Virus record (IMG/VR): IMGVR_UViG_2675903352_000012
Direction: 5' to 3' (one strand)
Source: a virus
Lineage: Duplodnaviria > Heunggongvirae > Uroviricota > Caudoviricetes
DNA length: 13,048 nucleotides
The translations under genes and the position numbers were made by a program. Positions within the stretch are counted from its first letter, which is position 1. Every line of letters begins with the position of its first letter. Positions 217 through 13,048 of the stretch are shown one piece after another. A model generated the notes under the pieces. The model had not been told where the DNA came from and did not search any database. It was given only the letters and a program-made list of their open reading frames with translations.

Positions 217-527
217 GCTGTCCTGCGGCGAACCAATGCGTTTCTTTTCACAAATTGAACTTTATTAACGGATTCCGCTTATGAATAGTTTTGCTGGTAT
301 ACTGCATGTCTTGCGCTTTGTTGCGGTGCCGAAACCCGCCCGTGCGAAGTGATTTGTTTTTAAATCATATGGTTAGAGATATGAAACATACTGTAGAAGT
401 AATGTTTTTTATGTTCCTGACTTTTCTAGTGTTTACCCGCTGAATATAAAAATCAATCAAAATCATTATGTTGTAGTGATTTTGTGTTCATGCTCGATTT
501 CATTTTTTCTGGATATTAATATTTCAC

Positions 528-561: not shown

Positions 562-1761
562 ATGATGTCTGGAACGAATAAGCTCAGCGACAGGAAACTA
601 AAGGCGCTGCAAGGAACGCATAGGGATCGTGTTGAAATGCTTGCTGACGGAGAGGGGTTAGGGGTCAGGTTATCAACTAAAGGGCATGTGAGCTGGGTTT
701 TTTCATATCGCCTTGGAGGGCGTGAGAGTTCAGTTATTCGTCTTACTCTAGGGAATTACCCTGATATTAGTCTGAAAGATGCCAGGATGTGGCGTGAGCG
801 TTGCCGTCAATGGTTGGCTAATGGTCTTGATCCAAAAATTGAACTCCAACTTTTTACTGAAGAATCCCGTGCTCCTGTTACTGTTCGAGATGCGTTGGAA
901 TATTGGTTGGTCAATTATGCAAGACATAAGCGCAAAGATGAGGAATTGATTAGGGCGCAATTCTGCAAACATGTCTACCCCAGAATAGGCCATTATCCGT
1001 TATCACGGTGCGATACTCGCCATTGGGTAAAATGTTTTGATGAGATTCGCGCTATAAGTTCAAAAACGGCGGGGCGTATGTTTCAACTCTCCAAGCAGGC
1101 ATTGCGGTTTTGCAATGTTCGGCGTTATGCCATCAGTGATGCCCTTGTTCATTTAACGTTAACCGATGTAGGGGAATCTGCCGGACAGCGCGACCGTGTT
1201 TTGAGTGATGCCGAACTATCAGATCTTTGGTATTTTGCAAAGGAGAAACATCGGGATATTTATTTTTCCAGATTAATAAAGTTGCTTATTGTCTTTGGGG
1301 CTAGAACTGTAGAGATTCGCCGTTCTCATTGGATTGAATGGGATTTTAATGAATGGGTTTGGATTGTTCCAAGAAATAACAGTAAAAGTAACAAAAAGAT
1401 TATTCGGCCAATTCCCGAAGGTATAAGAGACTGGTTAAAAGAGCTAAAACAGGAAACCGGGAGGACGGGCTTACTTTTGGGTGAGGAGAGAACGCATAGA
1501 GCTGTTTCTCTGAAAGGTCGCAGAATGTATAAAATATTCGGGCATAATGAAAAATGGACGCTACACGATTTAAGACGGACATTTTCAACTGGGTTAAACA
1601 ACATGGGGGTAATGCCTCATATTGTCGAGTCATTATTAGGTCACGTATATAATGCTGGCTCCGCAGAATTTAACTATAATCTTAGCCAGTATATCCCATT
1701 CAAATTAAAGGCTCTAAATGACTGGCTTGAATGTTTAGAAAAAATGGTTAAAGATAAATAA
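562..1761 (+). CDS. int: Tyrosine site-specific integrase, P4/CP4-57 type
   Basis: About 400 aa. The N-terminal region has the P4-integrase-like pattern (LSDRKLKAL...GLGVRLSTKG...ISLKDAR), and the C-terminus carries tyrosine-recombinase motifs HDLRRTF and LLGH. The track ORF begins at GTG 559; ATG codons at 562 and 565 are more likely starts. Confidence 0.9.
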   Translation: MMSGTNKLSDRKLKALQGTHRDRVEMLADGEGLGVRLSTKGHVSWVFSYRLGGRESSVIRLTLGNYPDISLKDARMWRERCRQWLANGLDPKIELQLFTEESRAPVTVRDALEYWLVNYARHKRKDEELIRAQFCKHVYPRIGHYPLSRCDTRHWVKCFDEIRAISSKTAGRMFQLSKQALRFCNVRRYAISDALVHLTLTDVGESAGQRDRVLSDAELSDLWYFAKEKHRDIYFSRLIKLLIVFGARTVEIRRSHWIEWDFNEWVWIVPRNNSKSNKKIIRPIPEGIRDWLKELKQETGRTGLLLGEERTHRAVSLKGRRMYKIFGHNEKWTLHDLRRTFSTGLNNMGVMPHIVESLLGHVYNAGSAEFNYNLSQYIPFKLKALNDWLECLEKMVKDK

Positions 1762-3247: not shown

Positions 3248-3501
3248 GCGTTGGTGGTTTATTGCGTCCATCACTGGGTGGCAAAACTTACTGATCTGAA
3301 CGTATTGCTACATGTGGGGAAAGGAGGCCAAGTACTGACAGCAGAGCAAAAAAAGAAGCTCGCTAAAGCTAGCGAGCCAACCAGTCAAGGATGTGCATTT
3401 AATGCACCTAAAGTCAGCAATAAGAAGTAATAGGCAGAAATGATTATGGCTTTTTTACTCTTAAAAATCAATCACTCAGCGCAATCGCACAAAAATAATT
3501 T

Positions 3502-3541
3502 GCAATATTGCTTGACTCGCTTTTTTGTCATGGCGTATCGT
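3502..3541 (+). promoter_or_regulatory. Candidate sigma70-like promoter with an adjacent palindrome, upstream of the Icd-like operon
   Basis: TTGACT at 3512-3517, an 18-bp spacer, then TATCGT at 3536-3541. The perfect palindrome GCAATATTGC (3502-3511) abuts the -35 element. Pattern only; not verified. Confidence 0.3.
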
Positions 3542-3793
3542 TTGCCCGCACCTCATAAAGCGGGTGCCGGGTTTGACAGCCTGATTGTTAGAGCGGGTAG
3601 CCGCTATATTTCCGTAATGCGGTTTTTTTGTGCCCGTAATTCCACCCCACCCCGTATTATGGCGGGGCGTAATGGGGGAGCCTTTGCGCTCGCTGGTTTC
3701 TCTAACGCCAGTCTGTCAACCCTGTTACGTCCCGCCACCATGTTTGACAGCGTGCTGGCGAGACTCCGTAAATCAGTTAGAGGAGCCGCCAAA

Positions 3794-3967
3794 ATGGCTA
3801 TATCAACACGCCCTGATTTTATCTGGCGCTTTATGCAGTGCCACGGTAAAAATATCCGCCTTCATACCGTTACCGCTGCCAGTGAGCGCGAAGCGCGCGC
3901 CATGCTTCCGGCATCCCGTCTGGTCTTTGTTGCCCGTATCCGTGTCCGGGAGGCGTGCCATGTTTAA
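3794..3967 (+). CDS. Icd/Kil-like small protein (host cell-division inhibitor-like, P4 kil family)
   Basis: 57-aa product MAISTRPDFIWRFMQCHGKNIRLHTVTAASEREARAMLPASRLVFVARIRV... resembles Icd-like proteins of P4-like prophages as I recall them. GAGGAG (3780-3785) lies 8 nt before ATG 3794. The longer track ORF from 3440 has no such support. Confidence 0.55.
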   Translation: MAISTRPDFIWRFMQCHGKNIRLHTVTAASEREARAMLPASRLVFVARIRVREACHV

Positions 3968-4963: not shown

Positions 4964-7633
4964 ATGAAATCTGACATCAGAAAAGAGATTATTAACCGTC
5001 TTATCCGTGATTACAACTTCAAAGAAGAAAATAACTACCTCCGGTATGGTGTTTGTCCGCAATGTGGAAAGAAAGAGTTGTTTACCAGCCTTGAAAGGCC
5101 GTACATCGTACACTGTGGGCGCGAAAATAAATGCGGTACAGACCTGCTGACCAAAGAACTTTACCCGGATGTGTTTTCATCATGGTCAGATCGTTATATC
5201 AGCACGAAAGATGAGCCATATGCAGCGGCGGCAGCTTATCTTCAGGAAGCGCGCAATATTGCTGTGGGGCCACTGAAGGGCGCATTTACTCAGGAGCGAT
5301 ACCAGGACAAGGAAAACGGCGAACAGGCCGCTACTGTGCGTTTTACGCTGGCTGACGGCGTGTGGTGGGAGCGCATCATAGACCGACCGGGACGCTTCGC
5401 GCGCAAGGCGAATTTTTCCGGCAGCTACAAGGGGTTGTGGTGGGCTTATCCGGGAGCAGATTTAAGCAAGGCCAAAGAAATCTGGATTTGTGAGGGCATC
5501 TTTGATGCCATCAGCCTTAACCAGAATGGCATTGCGGCCATTTCTGTCATGTCTGCCGTGAACTACCCTGATAAGGCGCTGGAAGAGCTGGCGAAGCTGT
5601 GCGGGGATAATCCCCGTCCGGTTATTGTGTGGGCCCTGGATAACGGGCGTGCGGGTGAACGTTACGCGAAAAAACATGCAGAACGCAGCGCCGAAGACGG
5701 CTGGAGAACGGCAGCGGCGTTGCCAGGTAAAAACAACAATAAACGCGACTGGAATGATTTACACATCGCAGGAAAGCTGCGTGGCCATGATGTGAAAAGA
5801 TACCGTTATTACGGTGATTTATTGCTGGCGAAATCTCCAAGAGATAAGGCACTAATAATGTTTTCCTTTCGTGAGCGGAAGGAATTTCATTTTACTTTTG
5901 ATAACCGTGTTTTCTGGTTCAAGCTGGACATTGAGCGCCATATGAAGGCTGTTGAGCGTGTCATTAATGAGCGAAATGTTGACGAAGACGAAGCGCGCAA
6001 AATTGCACTTAAGGAATCCGGCGCTGTAAAAGAAATCGCAAACTGTAACCCAGTGCCGCTTTATTACATTCGAAACAATGACACGGATGAAGCATGGTAT
6101 TACTTCCGCGTTACATTCCCGGATGGTGCTACGGTGAAAAACACCTTTACATCAGGACAATTAACATCCTCATCTGAATTTAAAAAACGCCTGCTGCACG
6201 TGGCAAAAGGCGGTATTTATACCGGAACGACTACGCAGCTTGACGCATTAATAAAAAATGACCTTCCCGCAATAAAAGAGGTTATTGGTCAGGATTTTAT
6301 CGGATACAACAAGGGAATTGGGGCATGGCTGTTTAATGATATTGCCGTTTACAAGGGTAAAACTTATGAAATCAATGATGAGGATTATTTTGAAATTGAT
6401 GGCATAAACGCAAAACCATTAAGCGAAAAACCCACATTACAGATTAACTACAAAAAACCGGATGAATTTACAGCGTCCTGGGTGGAAGATCTCTGGCTGG
6501 CTTTTGGTGAAAAGGGAATTATTACCCTGGCTTTCTGGTTGGGCTCCCTGTTCAGCGAACAAATCCGGGATAAAGAAGAATCCTTCCCCTTCCTTGAAGT
6601 CACCGGGGAGCCCGGAACGGGTAAATCAACACTGATTGATTTTTGCTGGCGGCTGTGCGGTCGTGACAACTATGAAGGCGTTGATCCAACCAAAGGATCA
6701 GAGGCGGGCTGGAAGCGCACCTTTGGACAGGTCGCCGGATTACCTGTTGTTCTGATTGAAGCGGACCGGGGAGACAATGCGCAAAAAAGAGGTGCGTTTG
6801 ACTTCGATAACCTGAAAAGTCTCTATAACGGCGGCGGTATCGGCGTTCGTGGTGTTAAGGCCAACAATAACAACACCTATGATCCGGATTTTAAGGGCGC
6901 TATCGTGATTGCGCAGAATGCGCGGGTAAACGCCTCTCCGGCAATTATTGAGCGTCTGATACGCATATACACCGATAAAAAACGCCATTCACCTGATACC
7001 CGCCTGGCGGCGAGACGGCTGGAACTTTACCCCGTCGAGAAGGTATCTGGGTTTATTCACCGGGCGGTAAGTCAGGAACGGGCGATTATGCAAACGTTCC
7101 TGGAAGTATCTCCAGTTGAAACGGAGCGCCTTTGCGGATGCGAAAATATTCGCCATCCCCGCATCGCCAAAAATCACGCACAACTTATCGCGCTGGTCAG
7201 GGCGCTGAAATGCGTTATTGATATCCCGGATGAATGGCTTGATGCCACATGTCTGGAACTGGAACAAATGGCAACAGCGCAGGTTAAAGCGGCGGCGGCT
7301 GATTTACCGGAAGTGATGGAGTTCTGGGAGGCGTTCGACTTCCTGGACGGCATAACAAAATACGGTGTAAACCACTACGGCAAGGGATGCCGCGAGGGGA
7401 TTGCTATCAGTATTCCGCAACTGGCACAGGCTGCCGCTATTCACCGCGTGGAGATCCGAACTGACCGCGAAATGATTGAGTTGCTCGGAGCCGGACGTTC
7501 CCGACCTTTGACAGGCCGCAAAACCATTCGTAGTGAGGTCTCCAGACAGGCAAACGCCGGAAGAGGGGTCGCCGAGGCCAGAGAGCCGGAAGTACTGAAA
7601 TGCCGGATATTCAGTTACAAGGAGGGGCGTTAA
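4964..7633 (+). CDS. Bifunctional replication protein: zinc-finger/TOPRIM primase fused to a P-loop helicase (P4 alpha-like)
   Basis: About 889 aa. N-terminal CPQCGKKE...HCGRENKCG zinc-binding motif; TOPRIM-like IWICEGIFDAISL and ALDNGRAGER; Walker A GEPGTGKST and Walker B-like VVLIEAD in the C-terminal half. Start taken at ATG 4964 (GGAG RBS) rather than the track's 4940. Confidence 0.85.
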   Translation: MKSDIRKEIINRLIRDYNFKEENNYLRYGVCPQCGKKELFTSLERPYIVHCGRENKCGTDLLTKELYPDVFSSWSDRYISTKDEPYAAAAAYLQEARNIAVGPLKGAFTQERYQDKENGEQAATVRFTLADGVWWERIIDRPGRFARKANFSGSYKGLWWAYPGADLSKAKEIWICEGIFDAISLNQNGIAAISVMSAVNYPDKALEELAKLCGDNPRPVIVWALDNGRAGERYAKKHAERSAEDGWRTAAALPGKNNNKRDWNDLHIAGKLRGHDVKRYRYYGDLLLAKSPRDKALIMFSFRERKEFHFTFDNRVFWFKLDIERHMKAVERVINERNVDEDEARKIALKESGAVKEIANCNPVPLYYIRNNDTDEAWYYFRVTFPDGATVKNTFTSGQLTSSSEFKKRLLHVAKGGIYTGTTTQLDALIKNDLPAIKEVIGQDFIGYNKGIGAWLFNDIAVYKGKTYEINDEDYFEIDGINAKPLSEKPTLQINYKKPDEFTASWVEDLWLAFGEKGIITLAFWLGSLFSEQIRDKEESFPFLEVTGEPGTGKSTLIDFCWRLCGRDNYEGVDPTKGSEAGWKRTFGQVAGLPVVLIEADRGDNAQKRGAFDFDNLKSLYNGGGIGVRGVKANNNNTYDPDFKGAIVIAQNARVNASPAIIERLIRIYTDKKRHSPDTRLAARRLELYPVEKVSGFIHRAVSQERAIMQTFLEVSPVETERLCGCENIRHPRIAKNHAQLIALVRALKCVIDIPDEWLDATCLELEQMATAQVKAAAADLPEVMEFWEAFDFLDGITKYGVNHYGKGCREGIAISIPQLAQAAAIHRVEIRTDREMIELLGAGRSRPLTGRKTIRSEVSRQANAGRGVAEAREPEVLKCRIFSYKEGR

Positions 7634-7635
7634 AC

Positions 7636-8640
7636 ATGCCGATCAGAAAGATGCATGATGGGCGGTGGCTGCTCGATATCAGGCCATGCGGACGTAAAGG
7701 GAAGCGCATCAGAAGAATATTTGACAAAAAATCGATAGCTACAGCAACTGAACGGTACATCATAGCGAACGCCGAAAAGCGCGAGTTTATACAGGGCTAT
7801 CGCGACCGGAGAACGCTTAGCGATTTACTGGAATTGTGGTGGGTTTATCACGGTCAGCACAGGCGAAAGGCAAACACGGATAAACAGCAGCTTGGCAAAA
7901 TTATTAATGAGCTTGGAGCTGGCATGTTTGCGGTAGAACTCGACAAATTAAAAATCATTGCATGGCGATCGCAGAAAATTGCGGAAGGATTAAAGCCGTC
8001 CTCAGCAAACAGATACATGAACAGATTATCGGGGATGTTTACAGCCCTGAAAAAGATCGGTTTGTGGGATGCAGAGCATCCGGTTCGTGGTATTCCTGTT
8101 CTTTATGTAAAGCAGCAGGAAATGGCCTTTTTATCAAAAAACGAGGTCACATTGTTGCTTGACGGGCTGAATGGAGATCAACGAAGGGTTGCGCTCTTGT
8201 GTCTTTGTACCGGAGCCCGCTGGAGTGAGGCCAGCAGATTGCATGGAGAGCAAATAGTTCATCACAGAATAACGTTTCTGGAAACCAAAAACGGTAGAAA
8301 AAGAACGGTGCCTGTGTCGCAGGAAATATGCGATGCCGTAAAAACAAAAGAAACCGGGCGACTGTTTGATGTGAAGTACAGAGAGTTTTGCCGGGCATTA
8401 AAAAAAATAAAACCCGATTTACCGAGGGGGCAGGCTGCGCATGTATTGCGGCATACATTCGCCAGTCACTTTGTGATGAACGGTGGCAACATTCTTGCGC
8501 TACAAAAAATCCTTGGGCATGCGACAATTCAGCAGACTATGGCATACGCACATTTTGCACCGGATTATCTGGCAGATGCCATGAGATTTAACCCGGTAGC
8601 CAACATAGTGATCACCGAAGAAAAAGACCCAGTAGAGTAA
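7636..8640 (+). CDS. int: Tyrosine site-specific integrase, P2-type (second recombinase)
   Basis: About 334 aa. N-terminus MPIRKMHDGRWLLDIRPCGRKGKRIRRIFDKK resembles the P2 Int arm-binding N-terminus as I recall it. Catalytic motifs TGARWSEA, HVLRHTF, LGHATIQQTMAYAH. GGAGGGG RBS (7621-7627) lies inside the primase 3' end; ATG 7636 is 2 nt after the primase stop. Confidence 0.85.
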   Translation: MPIRKMHDGRWLLDIRPCGRKGKRIRRIFDKKSIATATERYIIANAEKREFIQGYRDRRTLSDLLELWWVYHGQHRRKANTDKQQLGKIINELGAGMFAVELDKLKIIAWRSQKIAEGLKPSSANRYMNRLSGMFTALKKIGLWDAEHPVRGIPVLYVKQQEMAFLSKNEVTLLLDGLNGDQRRVALLCLCTGARWSEASRLHGEQIVHHRITFLETKNGRKRTVPVSQEICDAVKTKETGRLFDVKYREFCRALKKIKPDLPRGQAAHVLRHTFASHFVMNGGNILALQKILGHATIQQTMAYAHFAPDYLADAMRFNPVANIVITEEKDPVE

Positions 8641-8669
8641 CCCGCAGAACGCTACATTCACAGCAAAAG

Positions 8670-8696
8670 AGGTCAGTTTCCCGCTGACCTTTTTTG
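8670..8696 (+). terminator. Rho-independent terminator after the second integrase
   Basis: AGGTCAG (8670-8676), loop TTTCCCG, CTGACCT (8684-8690), followed by a T-run to 8695. Confidence 0.6.
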
Positions 8697-8876
8697 TTGG
8701 CCAGAACCAACGGTAACAGCAATGCAATGGTGGCCATATTGCAGTGGTGCCGCCATCAATTTTTTGCCCCCCTGATTATCAGAAAGAGTCAAATAATGAC
8801 GAGATACATTTTAATCACAGAGAGTTAATGAGATAAGTGAGTTTAATTAACATTTTAAAGGGTCGCGCTAAAGTTT

Positions 8877-9186
8877 GGGGGGGGATGCGCAAAGCGGTTA
8901 CAACGGTTACAAATTTAGAATTACTTATTTTTGTATTATATATCAATATATTATAACTGGTCGGATGAGTTACAAAAGCGGTTACAACGCGGTTACATGT
9001 AACCGTTTTGTTAGGTTACAGGCGGTTACAGGTTAAGTTTTTAATTGATTGATAATAAAGTGCTTTTTGAAACCTGTAACCGTTGTAACCGCAAAGCGGT
9101 TACAAATAATATCCATTAAAATCATGTTGTTAAGTGGTGTTTTTGACTGTTGTAACCGTTGTAACCGCTTTGCGCACCCCCCACCG
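8877..9186. repeat. Iteron array bounded by ~35-bp imperfect inverted repeats (candidate replication origin/crr or recombinase arm-site region)
   Basis: Twelve perfect GGTTACA/TGTAACC copies, starting at 8896, 8905, 8980, 8991, 8999, 9014, 9024, 9075, 9084, 9098, 9151 and 9160, with 9-11 bp spacing in both orientations. The left arm (8877-8912, G8 + ATGCGCAAAGCGGTTACAACGGTTACA) is the near-exact inverse of the right arm (9151-9186). The interior is AT-rich. Confidence 0.7.
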
Positions 9187-9409
9187 GATTATGAGGCAGA
9201 GCCCCAAAACAACTGGCCTGACCTCCAACAAAAATGCAACATCAATCATTGATTTTTTGGGGGCTGTCAGTCACGGGGAGTTGCCCTGTTGTTTGGCAGA
9301 AAAATGAAGTATGTACATGCGCGGCGGGGATGGTAAAAAACGTAATACACGCGGCGCAGTTGCCATAAAAAATCTCTCAAAAGCACTCTTTTTGACGCTA
9401 TTGTTCATC

Positions 9410-9436
9410 TGCACAAAAGTGCACAAATTTGCACAA
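9410..9436. repeat. Three tandem 10-bp repeats of TGCACAA
   Basis: TGCACAA at 9410, 9420 and 9430, with a fourth copy at 9502. Non-coding region upstream of the ogr-like gene. Confidence 0.4.
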
Positions 9437-9798
9437 TTTTTTAGAGTAACTTTTTGCCCATCCGGCCCAGTACTGGCGCGCCCGGAGGGCGATTTCGTGC
9501 GTGCACAAAAAACGGTGAGTTTTTCGCGCGCAGGTGACGGGGGAACAGCACGCGTTTCAGGGGGTAAATTACATTTTCGCTAAAGGCTGCGGGAATGCCC
9601 CGACCGGGTTAGTTTTATCGCCAGCCAGAGCCGTTCTTACGGCAAGAGAGAACTGATACGGGGAATGTGACGAGTGAGCATGGGAACGGCGCGCCCGTGC
9701 GTAATACGCGGCGACTGCTGCGGGTTTATTTGATACAGCCAGAGGGGGCGGCAGAAGATATAATAGGTTAAATTTCACACCAGTAAGAGGAGCGTGAT

Positions 9799-9981
9799 AT
9801 GTCTTTCCCTTGCCCGGCCTGTGGCGCTTCAGCCCGCACCCGTGGTCGTTCGTTGGAAGAACACGAACAAAACATCCACAGAACGTATTACCAGTGCAAT
9901 AATATTGAGTGTGGGGCTTGTTTTTGTACGCTTGAGTCGTTTGTACGCATTACTAAGCGCAGGAAGTCGAAAACTTCATAG
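9799..9981 (+). CDS. ogr: Ogr/Delta-family zinc-finger late-gene transcriptional activator
   Basis: 60 aa, MSFPCPACGASARTRGRSLEEHEQNIHRTYYQCNNIECGACFCTLESFVRI. The C-x2-C-x22-C-x4-C spacing and the CP.C..A.ART.R...Y.QC.N..C...F...ES pattern match P2 Ogr / P4 Delta as I recall them. AGGAG RBS 9788-9792; TATAAT at 9759-9764. Confidence 0.75.
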   Translation: MSFPCPACGASARTRGRSLEEHEQNIHRTYYQCNNIECGACFCTLESFVRITKRRKSKTS

Positions 9982-10031: not shown

Positions 10032-10265
10032 TTACGTCGTGTGGTTCTGGTCATTTGCCCAGGCCCACACATCCCCCGCTACATTGCGCCCGTTGCAGTC
10101 TTCTTCCTGCGTTTTCCCGGCCTTAATTCCCTGACTGATAAACATTCTGACGCACTGGGAGTAGTTCATCTCTCTGTCCTGACATATCTGATTTATTTTA
10201 TGGTCGATTTCGTGCGGGATACGAATACAGCGTAATACGCATCGCATTTTCTTTTGTTTTTTCAT
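10032..10265 (-). CDS. Small DNA-binding regulator, probably ribbon-helix-helix (CopG/Arc/MetJ-like)
   Basis: 77 aa from the internal ATG at 10263-10265, with GGGAGG 7 nt upstream on the minus strand. MKKQKKMRCVLRCIRIPHEIDHKINQICQDREMNYSQCVRMFISQGI fits a beta-strand/helix/helix pattern. Divergent from the 10431 operon across a repeat-rich intergenic region. Confidence 0.45.
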   Translation of the reverse strand: MKKQKKMRCVLRCIRIPHEIDHKINQICQDREMNYSQCVRMFISQGIKAGKTQEEDCNGRNVAGDVWAWANDQNHTT

Positions 10266-10430
10266 CGTGTTGCCTCCCTGATTGTTTATGCCGGGATTTA
10301 ACACCCGCGATATAAGAAAGCGTAATACAACAGTATTGTGAGCGTATTACGAGAACAAAATCGGCTGGAATGTATTACGCAATATGGAAAAAATCGGCGT
10401 AAGTAAAAAAATGTATTACAGGAGCAAATA
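10229..10430. promoter_or_regulatory. Divergent promoter/operator region with repeated CGTAATAC / GTATTACG motifs
   Basis: Perfect 8-mers at 10231, 10321, 10344 (complement) and 10372 (complement), plus a partial copy at 10413; further copies at 9341 and 9700. Lies between the RHH-like gene and the 10431 operon. Chance expectation for one 8-mer in about 1.1 kb is far below one. Confidence 0.45.
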
Positions 10431-11141
10431 ATGGATATAACTCAGGCAAGCGCCGAACATCAGGTATGTAAAGCACAGTTTGATACAGCCATGGCAAAAC
10501 TCAGTGAACAGGAATCATTAATCACCAATCTGGAAGCAACTATCGAACAGACGAAAGGGGAGCTGGAATCTCTCGATCGTGACTGGCAGAACTCAATCCT
10601 GTCTGCGCTGGGCGTAAAAACGGAAGCCTCCGCGAAATTATCCATTCAGGCGGGTGTGGCGCGAGAAAATCTTGAGCGTCTGCGGGTGCTGCATGATGAG
10701 GCGCGCATCAGGCTACTGGAGTGTCGTTATAACGCGGCAGAGGCTGGTTGTGCTTACGAAAGCATTGATAATAAGTTACGGGCAGAGATATTTGCAAAAG
10801 CACTTCCCGAACTGATTAACGAGCTGACCCCTGCTCTGTTATTGATTCGTGGTTTATGTGAGCTGCTTGGCCAGCCGCTGTATAACGCAGAAAAGAAAAT
10901 ATGCGAAACACTGAAAGCGACAGATACTGCTGAAAGTGTCGGGATGATTCGCGGCCGGATTAACGATACCGAAAGCGACACCTCCAGCCCGCTGCGTTAT
11001 TGCCCGGAGAAACTCCCGGATTCGGTAAGCCGCGCAATCAGGAACGCCCCTTCACCTGTACAATGGAGCGCAGCGCGACAGAATCCAGAAAAAATGCGCG
11101 ACCTTGCGGAGGGCAGAGAACTCTGCCGGGGGTGGCAGTAA
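10431..11141 (+). CDS. Hypothetical coiled-coil-rich protein (236 aa); possibly Psu/Sid-like or scaffold-like
   Basis: AGGAG RBS 10420-10424. The stop overlaps the downstream start (TAATG at 11139-11143). The N-terminal half has heptad-like, helix-rich composition. Any similarity to P4 Psu is a weak recollection only. Confidence 0.6.
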   Translation: MDITQASAEHQVCKAQFDTAMAKLSEQESLITNLEATIEQTKGELESLDRDWQNSILSALGVKTEASAKLSIQAGVARENLERLRVLHDEARIRLLECRYNAAEAGCAYESIDNKLRAEIFAKALPELINELTPALLLIRGLCELLGQPLYNAEKKICETLKATDTAESVGMIRGRINDTESDTSSPLRYCPEKLPDSVSRAIRNAPSPVQWSAARQNPEKMRDLAEGRELCRGWQ

Positions 11142-12412
11142 TGGGCGGTCTGAATACTCCACATTTGCACGGCGCTGATATAGTGAGCCGACTCAGGGGA
11201 TTAATGTCCCGGAATCGCCTGAAAGCAAACACAGCAAGCATAAGCGATGAGACGCGTCGCGCGCTGGACAATGAATATCAAAAACTGGAGCGTGAGCTTG
11301 AGCTTCACACCCTGCATACTGCAAGCGGTGGGGGTAATAACGACGGCATTGAGCGTTATAATTGCACTGCTGATTCTGTTGTATCACAACGAAATCAACA
11401 GGCTCAGATGGTTTTCAATTGCGCTATCGAGTCGATAACCGGAAAACATCCGAAGGATTTGCACTTTTCCGGTGACACTGCGCGCTATTCGTCAGAAGTT
11501 GAACCCGTTCCTCGCCAGAGTGCAACGCTTGCCAGTGGATGGCAGGCAAATTTCCTTGCTGAAATAACTCCCGTGCCTGTTACGGATATATCAGGTCGGG
11601 TTGTGCTGGTAGACGCTTCGGGGCCGTTGGCACGTACATCGCCACCTCACGAGCGCCGTTCGCCACTACAGGCGCATTCACTGGTTTCAAGGGGCTACCG
11701 CTGCGAGCAGGTTAATTTTGATTTTGCGCTGAACTACGACAATGTTGATGCTCACGCATCCGCAAACGGTCTTGAAGGAAGCGCACGGGCTGCTTTTGAA
11801 CGCCGGAAATGGCTGGATTTGATTCAGATTGGTTTTAACGGTACGCACTATGCCGATACATCAGATCCCGGAACATATCCGGGGCGTGATGATTGCGGCG
11901 TGGGCTGGTTGCAGAAGTTTCGAAATGAAGCGGCGGGAAGGGTTATCAGCGGCCTTTCTGTTTCATCACCGAAAAGTAATACACGCGGTACACACCATAC
12001 GATAGATGCGCTCGTTCTGGATGCCTGGCAATCCATGATTGATGAACAGTGGCAGGAAGGCATTGTGGCCGTATGCAGTCACAATACGCTGGTCCGTAAG
12101 CAATGGCCTTTGATAAACCGTCTTGATCCATCGCAGATGAATCAGGAAATTTTGCTTAACGAGGAAATCATTAAAAATCCTGTTCTGGGGAATCTCCCGG
12201 CTGTGACCGTTCCATTTTTCCCGGACAATGCTGTATTGATCACACCTCTTGCCAATCTGTGTCTGTACTGGCAGCGTGGTTCCGTTCGTGGCCTGGTAAA
12301 AAACGAGCCTCAGTATAATCGTCTCGCGTTCTATGAGTCCTGTAACCTTGACTGGGTGGTGGGGCAATATGAAGCAGGGTGCTTACTGGATGGGATTGAC
12401 TGGAAAGAATAG
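11141..12412 (+). CDS. P2 gpN-like major capsid protein homolog with an N-terminal extension of about 90 aa
   Basis: 423 aa from ATG 11141. The C-terminal 270 aa carry motifs I associate with the P2-family capsid protein: CEQVNFDF, IGFNG, GVGWLQKFRNEAAGRV, IDALVLDA, GNLPAVTVPFFPDNAVLIT, YESCNLDWVVGQYEAGCL. The N-terminal part contains a coiled-coil-like stretch (RRALDNEYQKLERELEL). Based on memory; needs a homology search. Confidence 0.55.
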   Translation: MGGLNTPHLHGADIVSRLRGLMSRNRLKANTASISDETRRALDNEYQKLERELELHTLHTASGGGNNDGIERYNCTADSVVSQRNQQAQMVFNCAIESITGKHPKDLHFSGDTARYSSEVEPVPRQSATLASGWQANFLAEITPVPVTDISGRVVLVDASGPLARTSPPHERRSPLQAHSLVSRGYRCEQVNFDFALNYDNVDAHASANGLEGSARAAFERRKWLDLIQIGFNGTHYADTSDPGTYPGRDDCGVGWLQKFRNEAAGRVISGLSVSSPKSNTRGTHHTIDALVLDAWQSMIDEQWQEGIVAVCSHNTLVRKQWPLINRLDPSQMNQEILLNEEIIKNPVLGNLPAVTVPFFPDNAVLITPLANLCLYWQRGSVRGLVKNEPQYNRLAFYESCNLDWVVGQYEAGCLLDGIDWKE

Positions 12413-12434: not shown

Positions 12435-12457
12435 GAGGGCTTCTCAGCCCTCCTTTT
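12435..12457 (+). terminator. Hairpin plus T-tract between the convergent capsid-like and toxin genes
   Basis: GAGGGCT (12435-12441), loop TCTC, AGCCCTC (12446-12452), then CTTTT. It overlaps the toxin stop codon. Confidence 0.45.
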
Positions 12458-12800
12458 ACTTAAGCAGATGCTCTCCGCCAATCAGGGTAATGACTCTTTC
12501 AAGCACATCATTAAATACCCCATCTTCTGCCTCTGTGATTAAGCGCGCTTTCCGCTGACGCCAGTCAAGGGTTTGAATGAGTGTGGTTGCTACAACGCTG
12601 GGGGCGTCCAGATTTGTTACCGGAACTTCTGTGGGAGCATTTCGTATGCTCGTACTTATGGGGCAGCATATGACAAGCCCGGTGAGTCGGTTATATTGCT
12701 CATGGGACAGTATGAGTGCCGGGCGATACTTTCCGATCTCTTTTCCTTTCTGCGGCTCAAAATCCAGCCAGCAAATATCACCACGCTTAGGTACAAACAT
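12456..12800 (-). CDS. MazF/PemK-family endoribonuclease toxin (type II TA)
   Basis: 114 aa. RGDICWLDFEPQKGKEIGKYRPALILS...TGLVICCPISTS matches the PemK/MazF N-terminal pattern (RGD.v..dF.P..G.E....RPa.vlS). GAGGAGG RBS lies inside the antitoxin 3' end; the start overlaps the antitoxin stop. Confidence 0.85.
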   Translation of the reverse strand: MFVPKRGDICWLDFEPQKGKEIGKYRPALILSHEQYNRLTGLVICCPISTSIRNAPTEVPVTNLDAPSVVATTLIQTLDWRQRKARLITEAEDGVFNDVLERVITLIGGEHLLK

Positions 12801-13048
12801 CAGTAATCAACCTCCTCATTGAATGGGGTGGCAATTTCGTCCGCGTGCGCTGTAACTGGCGTTATCCCGGCGAGTAATTCGGCTTCACTCAGGCGACGGC
12901 GTGCAGGCTTTTCTACAAAAAGCCCCTTTTCACTAATTTCAACGTTGACGATATCACCCACTGAAAAACCCGGAACGGTTTTAAGGTTTCCCGTTAGTCG
13001 AAGGGCAATGCTATTACCCCATTTTTGCAATACAACCTGTGTGCGCAT
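12800..13048 (-). CDS. MazE/AbrB-fold antitoxin (SpoVT/AbrB family)
   Basis: 82 aa. LQKWGNSIALRLTGNLKTVPGFSVGDIVNVEI matches the MazE/ChpS pattern (KRWGNS.AVRIP). The start codon is the last three bases of the window, so the promoter lies outside it. Confidence 0.8.
   Translation of the reverse strand: MRTQVVLQKWGNSIALRLTGNLKTVPGFSVGDIVNVEISEKGLFVEKPARRRLSEAELLAGITPVTAHADEIATPFNEEVDY

Follow-up and report, generated by a model that had tools for sequence, protein, structure and literature searches.

The stretch of viral DNA analyzed here (13,048 nt; IMG/VR record IMGVR_UViG_2675903352_000012, Caudoviricetes), hereafter called the window, holds an atypical P4-family satellite of P2-like phages. 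An earlier note on this DNA described two different tyrosine integrases within one element, and both Pfam and solved-structure matches bear this out. A P4-type enzyme, int1 (562-1761), lies toward the left end, and a P2-type enzyme, int2 (7636-8640), lies immediately 3' of the primase-helicase gene (Table 1). Related loci with which the window was compared carry L numbers.

An intact integrase gene inside the replication block

The primase gene starts with the ATG at 4964 and ends with the TAA at 7631-7633, and after two nucleotides (AC) the int2 ATG follows at 7636. The limits of the primase gene (4964-7633) agree with the RefSeq call in a 99%-identical E. coli locus (L001). The earlier note had placed the int2 start 2 nt past the primase stop and its ribosome-binding site within the primase coding sequence, where the AGGAGG can indeed be read directly. 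The same 2-nt stop-start spacing is constant in L001, L010, L012, and L013, in five IMG/VR contigs (L067-L071), and in a Yersinia satellite (L156). The geometry of this junction suggests translational coupling between primase and int2, and int2 appears placed to be transcribed, and probably translated, along with primase. The primase itself matches phrog_1139 (2e-297) and is 41-51% identical over its full length to the primases of the Peduoviridae phages ESSI2_ev239 and phiCTX, whereas its match to P4 alpha spans only 27 residues. Its C-terminal ~100 residues are presumed to form the origin-binding part.

The int2 gene encodes 334 residues without an internal stop. The protein matches the Pfam families Int_N (PF24624, 83 bits) and Phage_integrase (PF00589, 71 bits), both above their cut-offs, and its best solved-structure matches are 5c6k ("Integrase", 1.3e-78), which we take to be the P2 integrase, and 1aih ("HP1 integrase", 1.1e-48). 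According to the earlier note, lack of an intact catalytic set would have refuted its reading; in an alignment with ten relatives, however, Arg195, Lys218, His269, Arg272, His295, and Tyr304 are all invariant. Like the integrases of P2-like phages (P2 Int, HP1 Int, and those of P88_4B11 and vB_EcoM-569R5), int2 is a three-domain protein with every catalytic residue in place, and as an enzyme it belongs to the P2/HP1 integrase family. Most int2 pairs are saturated at synonymous sites; the finite ratios of nonsynonymous to synonymous substitution rates (dN/dS) with a satellite copy range from 0.07 to 0.22, and the one pair in which both members are satellite-borne (L004/L007) gives 0.20.

The primase is carried by 71 of 5426 complete E. 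coli genomes, and the whole primase-int2-repeat block is present in 65 of these 71. One backbone occupies three chromosomal sites, namely gcd/hpt (L001, L013), tRNA-Arg argW (L010), and a tRNA near ompT (L012). Each site comes with a different left integrase, while primase and int2 are internal and separated by the same 2 nt. Because int1 differs from site to site and int2 stays internal, the left integrase sets the chromosomal site and int2 is unused for the observed integrations. Satellites of Salmonella (L004, L007, L158) and Yersinia (L156) also have a P2-type integrase after the replication gene; the order is primase-int2-iterons in E. coli and Yersinia and primase-iterons-int2 in Salmonella, where the replication proteins match parts of P4 alpha at 36-42% identity. 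These comparisons show that int2 is a fixed internal part of a replication block composed of primase, int2, a terminator, and an iteron cluster. The earlier note called the arrangement unusual, which holds relative to canonical P4 but not within this satellite family, where a second integrase is the rule (~65 of the 71 primase-bearing E. coli genomes).

High-identity E. coli matches are all collinear single pieces. One further locus, L011, is a deletion derivative lacking both int2 and the iterons. A site-specific event was considered for this deletion and rejected, as the junction shows 2 nt of microhomology, which points to illegitimate recombination. A scan of genome contigs returned mostly distant P2-like integrases, because that collection has one genome per species.

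The integrase body, its tail, and the repeats beside it

Among satellites whose primases and flanks are 87-97% identical, E. coli alone has at least three widely differing int2 bodies (alleles A, B, and C), separated by a nonsynonymous divergence (dN) of 0.36-0.47, and a fourth body occurs in Yersinia. The conserved 5' flank comprises the primase end, the ribosome-binding site, and the first 17-20 int2 codons, whose residues are of satellite type in all E. coli alleles. On the 3' side, the last six int2 codons, the terminator, and a 230-bp spacer are conserved. The window has allele A, which over residues 1-321 shares 81% identity with the integrases of Xuanwuvirus P88_4B11, phage Chuche, and phages related to them; across residues 1-55, the region of the putative N-terminal arm-binding domain, identity with phage integrases is 76%. 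Allele B (L010) is 87.5% identical to the integrase of vB_EcoM-569R5 over residues 1-321, with 91% identity in the core-binding domain and 95% in the catalytic domain, and in ~286 E. coli genomes a prophage integrase gene matches allele B at 90.6% identity, but solely across nt 127-932. Which allele a satellite carries does not depend on the site it occupies: hpt has A or C, and A is found both at hpt and at the ompT tRNA. As judged from these identities, the int2 body is exchanged as a cassette with the integrases of present-day P2-like (Peduoviridae) phages, and its specificity-determining part tracks these contemporary enzymes. P2-like prophages at the pdxB site (L154, L151) have an integrase that matches allele A; in both, ParM/StbB-type plasmid partition genes lie beside the replication gene (L154 3710-4985; L151 432-1707).

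The closest relatives of int2 form two groups by their last residues. Integrases with the tail ...GG(V/L)xVHxxTT belong to real P2-like prophages, in which cox, C, and int are followed by host genes, while those with ...NPVA(N/G) and a different tail are satellite-borne. This rule called the genomic context correctly for five further proteins (three phage, two satellite). The codons of the phage tail coincide with two TG[TA]CCAC repeats spaced by 11 bp: seven phage-borne relatives have a TG[TA]CCA[CT] pair with this spacing at the 3' end of int, in agreement with the published P2-type arm consensus tgTGGaCa (PMC3448106), and the P88_4B11 genome has a second arm pair ~300 bp downstream. Exactly this arm-encoding part gives way in the satellites to another tail of 13 residues, whose amino acid sequence is conserved across int2 alleles.

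The two kinds of gene differ in their surroundings as well. In P2-like phages the order is cox, C, int, attP at the prophage edge, with paired tgTGGaCa arms in the last int codons and the second arm ~300 bp further; int2, by contrast, has another tail, lacks arms and core, lies internally behind the primase, and has no C or cox gene seen beside it. The arm pair occurs at the 3' end of no satellite int2 copy, and no P2-type arm pair was found anywhere in the window, L001, L013, L004, L007, or L158. Searched with up to one mismatch, the arm motif has no match in the whole window. When the attP sequences of the nearest phages were compared with the window and the satellites (blastn-short), only chance matches of 11-19 nt were returned. 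In all satellite contexts read, int2 is internal and never at an element boundary. These comparisons show that int2, as far as its sequence context can tell, has no attachment site of its own. Despite belonging to the P2/HP1 family as an enzyme, int2 is not part of an integration module by arms, attP homology, or boundary position.

Active avoidance of the arm motif in satellites was considered and rejected; the window has none against 5.9 expected (P = 0.005), but six other satellites are not depleted. A GTGGACA-N4-GTGGACA pair, matching the P2-type arm consensus with 11-bp spacing, is present at L010 8158-8176, L012 6594-6612, and L156 2055-2073, ~50 bp past the stop of the 419-420-residue left integrase of the argW-type, ompT-type, and Yersinia satellites; the window, whose element is of the hpt type, lacks it. 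The pair may bind Int2 or belong to a terminator.

A hairpin with a U tract ends the primase-int2 unit (8661-8699) and is >90% conserved among the int2 allele classes. Between 8641 and 9798 there is no family-supported gene; a 90-residue open reading frame (ORF) at 9311-9583 has no family match. In keeping with the repeat-rich non-coding region that the earlier note had seen after int2, this interval contains 11 exact copies of CGGTTACA at 8895-9167, against 0.3 expected. A 36-nt inverted repeat (8877-8912/9150-9185) brackets the cluster, and a perfect palindrome, CGGTTACATGTAACCG, lies at its center. The annotated P4 record shows alpha, a terminator, crr (300 bp), attP, and int, with ten TGTTCACC "ori type 1 repeats" in crr that form 9-bp tandem pairs in both orientations; the cluster of the window (8877-9185) has the same architecture.

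The iterons vary with the primase rather than with int2. Primases with a type I C-terminus (window, L001, L012) are paired with CGGTTACA iterons, and those with a type II C-terminus (L010, L013) with A/GGGTTACA (RGGTTACA) iterons. L010 and L013 share type II iterons even though their int2 alleles are just 59% identical, and the Yersinia satellite L156 keeps CGGTTACA iterons with an unrelated int2 N-terminal domain. In Salmonella, the C-terminal 68 residues of the L004 primase correspond to a free-standing 84-residue ORF in L007, and each lies directly 5' of identical GGTGATACAG iterons. Since the iterons co-vary with the primase C-terminus and not with int2, they are best read as origin-type repeats and not as int2 sites. 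To judge from these patterns, the repeats beside int2 are replication iterons of the P4 crr/ori type and not an attP. The earlier suggestion of an intact, unused attP next to int2 thus lacks support on three counts: the iterons track the primase, the arm repeats are missing, and there is no homology to phage attP.

We also weighed the iterons as arm-type sites for Int2. The attraction of this idea is that L004 and L007 share GGTGATACAG and a near-identical Int2 N-terminal domain while their primases are unrelated. It was rejected on the grounds that the shared DNA already starts within the L004 primase C-terminus (the 84-residue ORF of L007), that the E. coli and Yersinia iterons follow the primase C-terminus across four int2 alleles, and that genuine arm sites of the P2 type consist of TGTCCAC pairs. 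Two distinct iteron clusters are present in L007 (5251-5487 and 5968-6208). Iterons of the TTATCTACC type lie 3' of its P4-alpha-like helicase and are also found in L158 (8620-8900); the second module, the 84-residue ORF with GGTGATACAG iterons, is common to L007 and L004. This distribution suggests that origin modules are exchanged among satellites.

The satellite and its surroundings

In E. coli 08_3323 (L001), a 12.9-kb island lying between gcd and hpt matches the window at 99% identity. Locus L014, from Escherichia sp. MOD1-EC7003, comes no closer than 97.3% and has no counterpart of nt 1-247. Comparison with the empty K-12 site reveals a 42-bp direct repeat, overlapping the start of hpt, that bounds the island: the K-12 sequence (L009 514-555) is duplicated at both island ends in L001 and L013, and positions 248-404 of the window align to K-12 399-555. 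The satellite is thereby shown to have been inserted at the start of hpt by int1, the P4-type integrase at its left end. The features of the window are collected in Table 1.

Table 1 Features of the satellite in the window, with positions counted from the first nucleotide
Feature	Position	Strand	Basis or remark
attL (left copy of the 42-bp repeat)	363-404		K-12 comparison; island begins at ~405
int1, P4-type tyrosine integrase	562-1761	+	Pfam Arm-DNA-bind_3 and Phage_integrase; adjoins attL
C4/CI-type antisense RNA (P4/P1-like immunity) in an Icd-like ORF	3655-3742	+	Rfam RF01695
Primase-helicase	4964-7633	+	Toprim and weak DUF5906 SF3-helicase-type match; phrog_1139
Shine-Dalgarno sequence AGGAGG for int2	7620-7625	+	Within the primase coding sequence; conserved in L067-L071
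int2, intact P2/HP1-type tyrosine integrase	7636-8640	+	13-residue satellite-specific C-terminal tail
Intrinsic-terminator-like hairpin and U tract	8661-8699	+	-25.2 kcal/mol, z = -5
crr/ori-like iteron cluster	8877-9185		11-12 CGGTTACA units, 9-bp tandem pairs, both orientations, AT-rich spacers
Ogr/Delta-like zinc-finger activator	9799-9981	+	phrog_603, weak NF007241, RefSeq name in L001
236-residue ORF and P2-family major-capsid homolog	10431-12412	+	Pfam Phage_cap_P2, 1.8e-72

On the P4 side of this mosaic stand int1, the C4/CI-like RNA, and the crr-like iteron cluster, and on the P2-family side the primase, int2, the ogr-like gene, and the capsid homolog, so that the hybrid P4/P2 element proposed in the earlier note is an apt description. 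As in P4 (NC_001609), a primase-helicase gene, a terminator, an iteron cluster of ~300 bp, and an integrase gene occur in the same direction, and further features common to the two are the C4/CI-type RNA and its Icd-like ORF, the Ogr/Delta-like activator, and the terminal position of a P4-type integrase. Several differences set the two apart. The sole integrase of P4, which follows crr, has attP (arm repeats TTGGGGGCAT and core) in front of it, whereas the corresponding slot of the window is taken by a P2-type integrase without attP and a separate P4-type enzyme, int1, performs integration. The primase is of the phiCTX/ESSI2 Peduoviridae type and not P4 alpha, a P2-family capsid homolog is present, and no sid or psu gene was found in the ORFs scanned. 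The Psu and Sid families have no match in int1, the 192-, 175-, 99-, 90-, and 236-residue ORFs, the primase, int2, or the capsid homolog.

The immunity RNA scores 72.8 bits against a gathering score of 45 (RF01695, 3655-3742), and the ORF around it (3440-3967) matches NCBIfam phage_ICD_like; a C4 RNA within an Icd-like ORF is the P1/P4-type immunity arrangement. The ORF at 9799-9981 matches phrog_603 at 3e-10 and NF007241 below its cut-off, and RefSeq names it "ogr/Delta-like zinc finger". An ogr/Delta-like gene lies 3' of int2 in every satellite relative, ~0.1-2 kb away (L004, L007, L012, L156, L158), with other small ORFs in between in L007 and L158. The motif (A/G)CGTAATAC occurs at least five times (9337, 9700, and 10224-10420), around the ogr-like gene and 5' of the operon for the 236-residue protein and the capsid homolog. 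These motifs may be activator sites of late-type promoters.

The 236-residue ORF and the capsid homolog form a helper-exploitation module, which gives context to the label of a satellite of P2-like phages. Identity between the capsid homolog (11141-12412) and phage capsids is just 35-39%; the homolog is extended at its N-terminus by ~110-130 residues, and the 236-residue ORF 5' of it has no family match. Every int2-bearing satellite examined with enough sequence has the capsid gene (L007 and L008 are left-truncated), placed either as in the window or between int1 and the Icd-like gene (L004, L012, L156). Two candidate P4 features were tried and rejected: the 99-residue ORF 5' of the primase gene has no BLASTP match that would make it an epsilon homolog, and a putative cos site at 9533 is the best match to the P4 cos 19-mer at only 14/19, equaled by a match inside the primase gene.

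The gene content further includes a frameshifted cargo gene, a helix-turn-helix gene, small ORFs, and a PemK/MazE pair. The cargo gene (1778-2831; 30-36% GC) is AT-rich, adjoins int1, is frameshifted near 2350, and has no family match; in L001 (9856-10908) it is intact and encodes a 350-residue hypothetical protein. A PemK/MazF toxin and a MazE-type antitoxin are encoded on the minus strand at 12456-13048, at the right island end adjoining attR, and the pair is also present, in opposite orientation, in L007, a Salmonella relative at the hpt site. Two copies of the direct repeat GTGTATCAAT, 12 bp apart, lie at 526-555, directly 5' of the int1 start, and may be int1 arm-type or regulatory sites. 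At the left edge of the window, the minus strand carries a 3' piece of gcd (47-246) with only 91.5% identity to the E. coli gene, and the spacer (248-404) matches K-12 at 93.6%; missing are the 5' two-thirds of gcd and the 72 bp upstream of it (L001 6201-8324). The host is probably a non-coli Escherichia with a truncated gcd, and an island 99% identical to an E. coli copy next to a more diverged left flank suggests recent transfer.

Possible roles of int2

The remaining question is what an integrase without an attachment site might act on. By elimination, and from the match between int2 and phage integrases, the reading we favor, with somewhat less than even confidence, is that int2 is a helper-matched orphan integrase acting in trans on the att sites of a P2-like helper. 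P2 prophages cannot be induced, and their excision is probably limited by the supply of Int. Int2 would be made together with primase when the satellite replicates, and its substrates would be the att sites of the P2-like helper phage. In the most likely role, Int2 and the helper's own Cox would excise the helper prophage, whose genes would then be amplified and used by the satellite. Alternatively, Int2 might block or scramble helper integration or excision, which fits the same data. A slightly more tentative proposal is integrase mimicry, in which an att-less cassette of the helper's integrase serves to hijack or interfere at helper att sites and is kept matched to them by swapping its core-binding and catalytic body.

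Several points weigh against a role at helper att sites. No second int2-like copy is present in 21 of 29 satellite-bearing genomes with allele A and in 13 of 21 with allele B; because most satellite genomes thus lack such a copy, a matched helper prophage is usually not co-resident. Extra copies do appear enriched (8/29 and 8/21 against a background of ~5-6%), but this is confounded by clonal strains and possible second satellites, and the co-residence counts give places per record only. For allele C, the phage collection offers no close counterpart. The first 17-20 codons, which belong to the presumed arm-binding domain, are of satellite type, so that Int2 might recognize arms differently than the phage enzyme does. 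Frequent gene conversion from phages could also keep int2 looking intact without selection for catalysis. Finally, P4 exploits P2 without helper excision, and the need for such an activity is not obvious.

If gene conversion alone preserved the reading frame, int2 could be a functionless relic of an alpha-crr-attP-int arrangement with a decayed attP, kept intact-looking by recombination with P2-like int genes. The sharp mosaic borders in allele B at nt 127 and ~nt 930 fit such a history, as do the high identity of int2 to phage genes (81-95%, versus 35-39% for the capsid homolog) and the existence of the deletion derivative L011. We nevertheless consider a relic unlikely. Every other copy read, from three genera, has an unbroken ORF; E. 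coli and Yersinia satellites share the ribosome-binding site and the 2-nt spacing although their sequences have diverged; the amino acid sequence of the satellite-specific tail is conserved whichever allele it belongs to; and dN/dS is 0.2 between two satellite-borne copies. L011, for its part, has lost the origin too and is probably a dead element.

A second integration module, giving the satellite an alternative site through an unrecognized attP in 8641-9798 or elsewhere, seems quite unlikely to us. Such a role would suit a complete integrase with a putative arm-binding N-terminal domain, which occupies the ancestral integrase slot (the P4 integrase also follows alpha and crr in the circular map), and satellite integrases are known to swap between elements (PMC8628076). 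Set against this are the absence of P2-type arm pairs from the six loci searched and the position of int2, which is internal, with a different integrase at the boundary, in nine of nine independent contexts. The spacer and terminator are >90% conserved between alleles that are ~39% identical in the core-binding domain; a cognate core near int2 is unlikely because it would have to change with the allele, and the flanks do not. In L158, moreover, the gap between the iterons and int2 is only ~100 bp.

It is very unlikely, in our judgment, that int2 is a replication-coupled resolvase of the Cre/Xer type that resolves satellite multimers at or near the iterons during plasmid-like replication. The constant vicinity of int2 to primase and iterons in both gene orders, the co-expression with primase suggested by the stop-start geometry, and the palindrome CGGTTACATGTAACCG at the cluster center would all accord with this role, yet the iterons stay constant while int2 alleles and N-terminal domains change completely. 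A resolvase acting on the satellite itself would give no reason for the core-binding domain to match different phage integrases time and again, and P2-type integrases need arm sites and accessory factors (PMC3448106), of which the arm sites are absent. The earlier note had proposed a recombinase recruited for resolution or inversion; with no site beside int2 that co-varies with it, collinear relatives, and no inversion variants, neither function finds a footing here. That int2 merely marks the edge of a separate neighboring prophage or island with its own att sites, a case raised in the earlier note and the way in which published surveys read integrases beside alpha (PMC8628076, PMC10085698), can be dismissed: the entire 12.9-kb element lies between the 42-bp att repeats and its left end is 7.2 kb away from int2, int2 starts 2 nt after the primase stop, the modules on both of its sides travel together to three chromosomal sites, and int2 is internal in every context examined.

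To our knowledge, no satellite function makes use of a copy of the helper's integrase, and our search of the accessible literature turned up no account of satellites with a helper-type orphan integrase. The paper on EPIP satellites, which induce excision of a helper prophage in Mycolicibacterium, reports a serine integrase but no mechanism. Surveys of P4-like elements found integrases beside alpha in <1% of cases and put them down to neighboring elements; they assume one integrase per satellite and discard extras (PMC8628076, PMC10085698). Our comparisons place one such extra integrase among the conserved core genes of a satellite lineage in E. coli, Salmonella, and Yersinia.

From the tail signature, satellite-borne and phage-borne P2-type integrases can be told apart, which could sharpen the delimitation of satellites and P2-like prophages in genomes. 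Like the genes with which satellites manipulate their helpers (the epsilon antirepressor, the delta activator, and sid/psu), int2 is satellite-carried and related to or directed at P2-like phages, a likeness of possible working only; should the action of int2 on helper att sites hold, it would be one more helper-acting satellite gene. Such action would add a new lever to derepression, late-gene activation, and capsid resizing, and would explain the repeated exchange of the specificity domain with phage genes. Integrase mimicry, if true, would constitute a new class of satellite-helper interaction.

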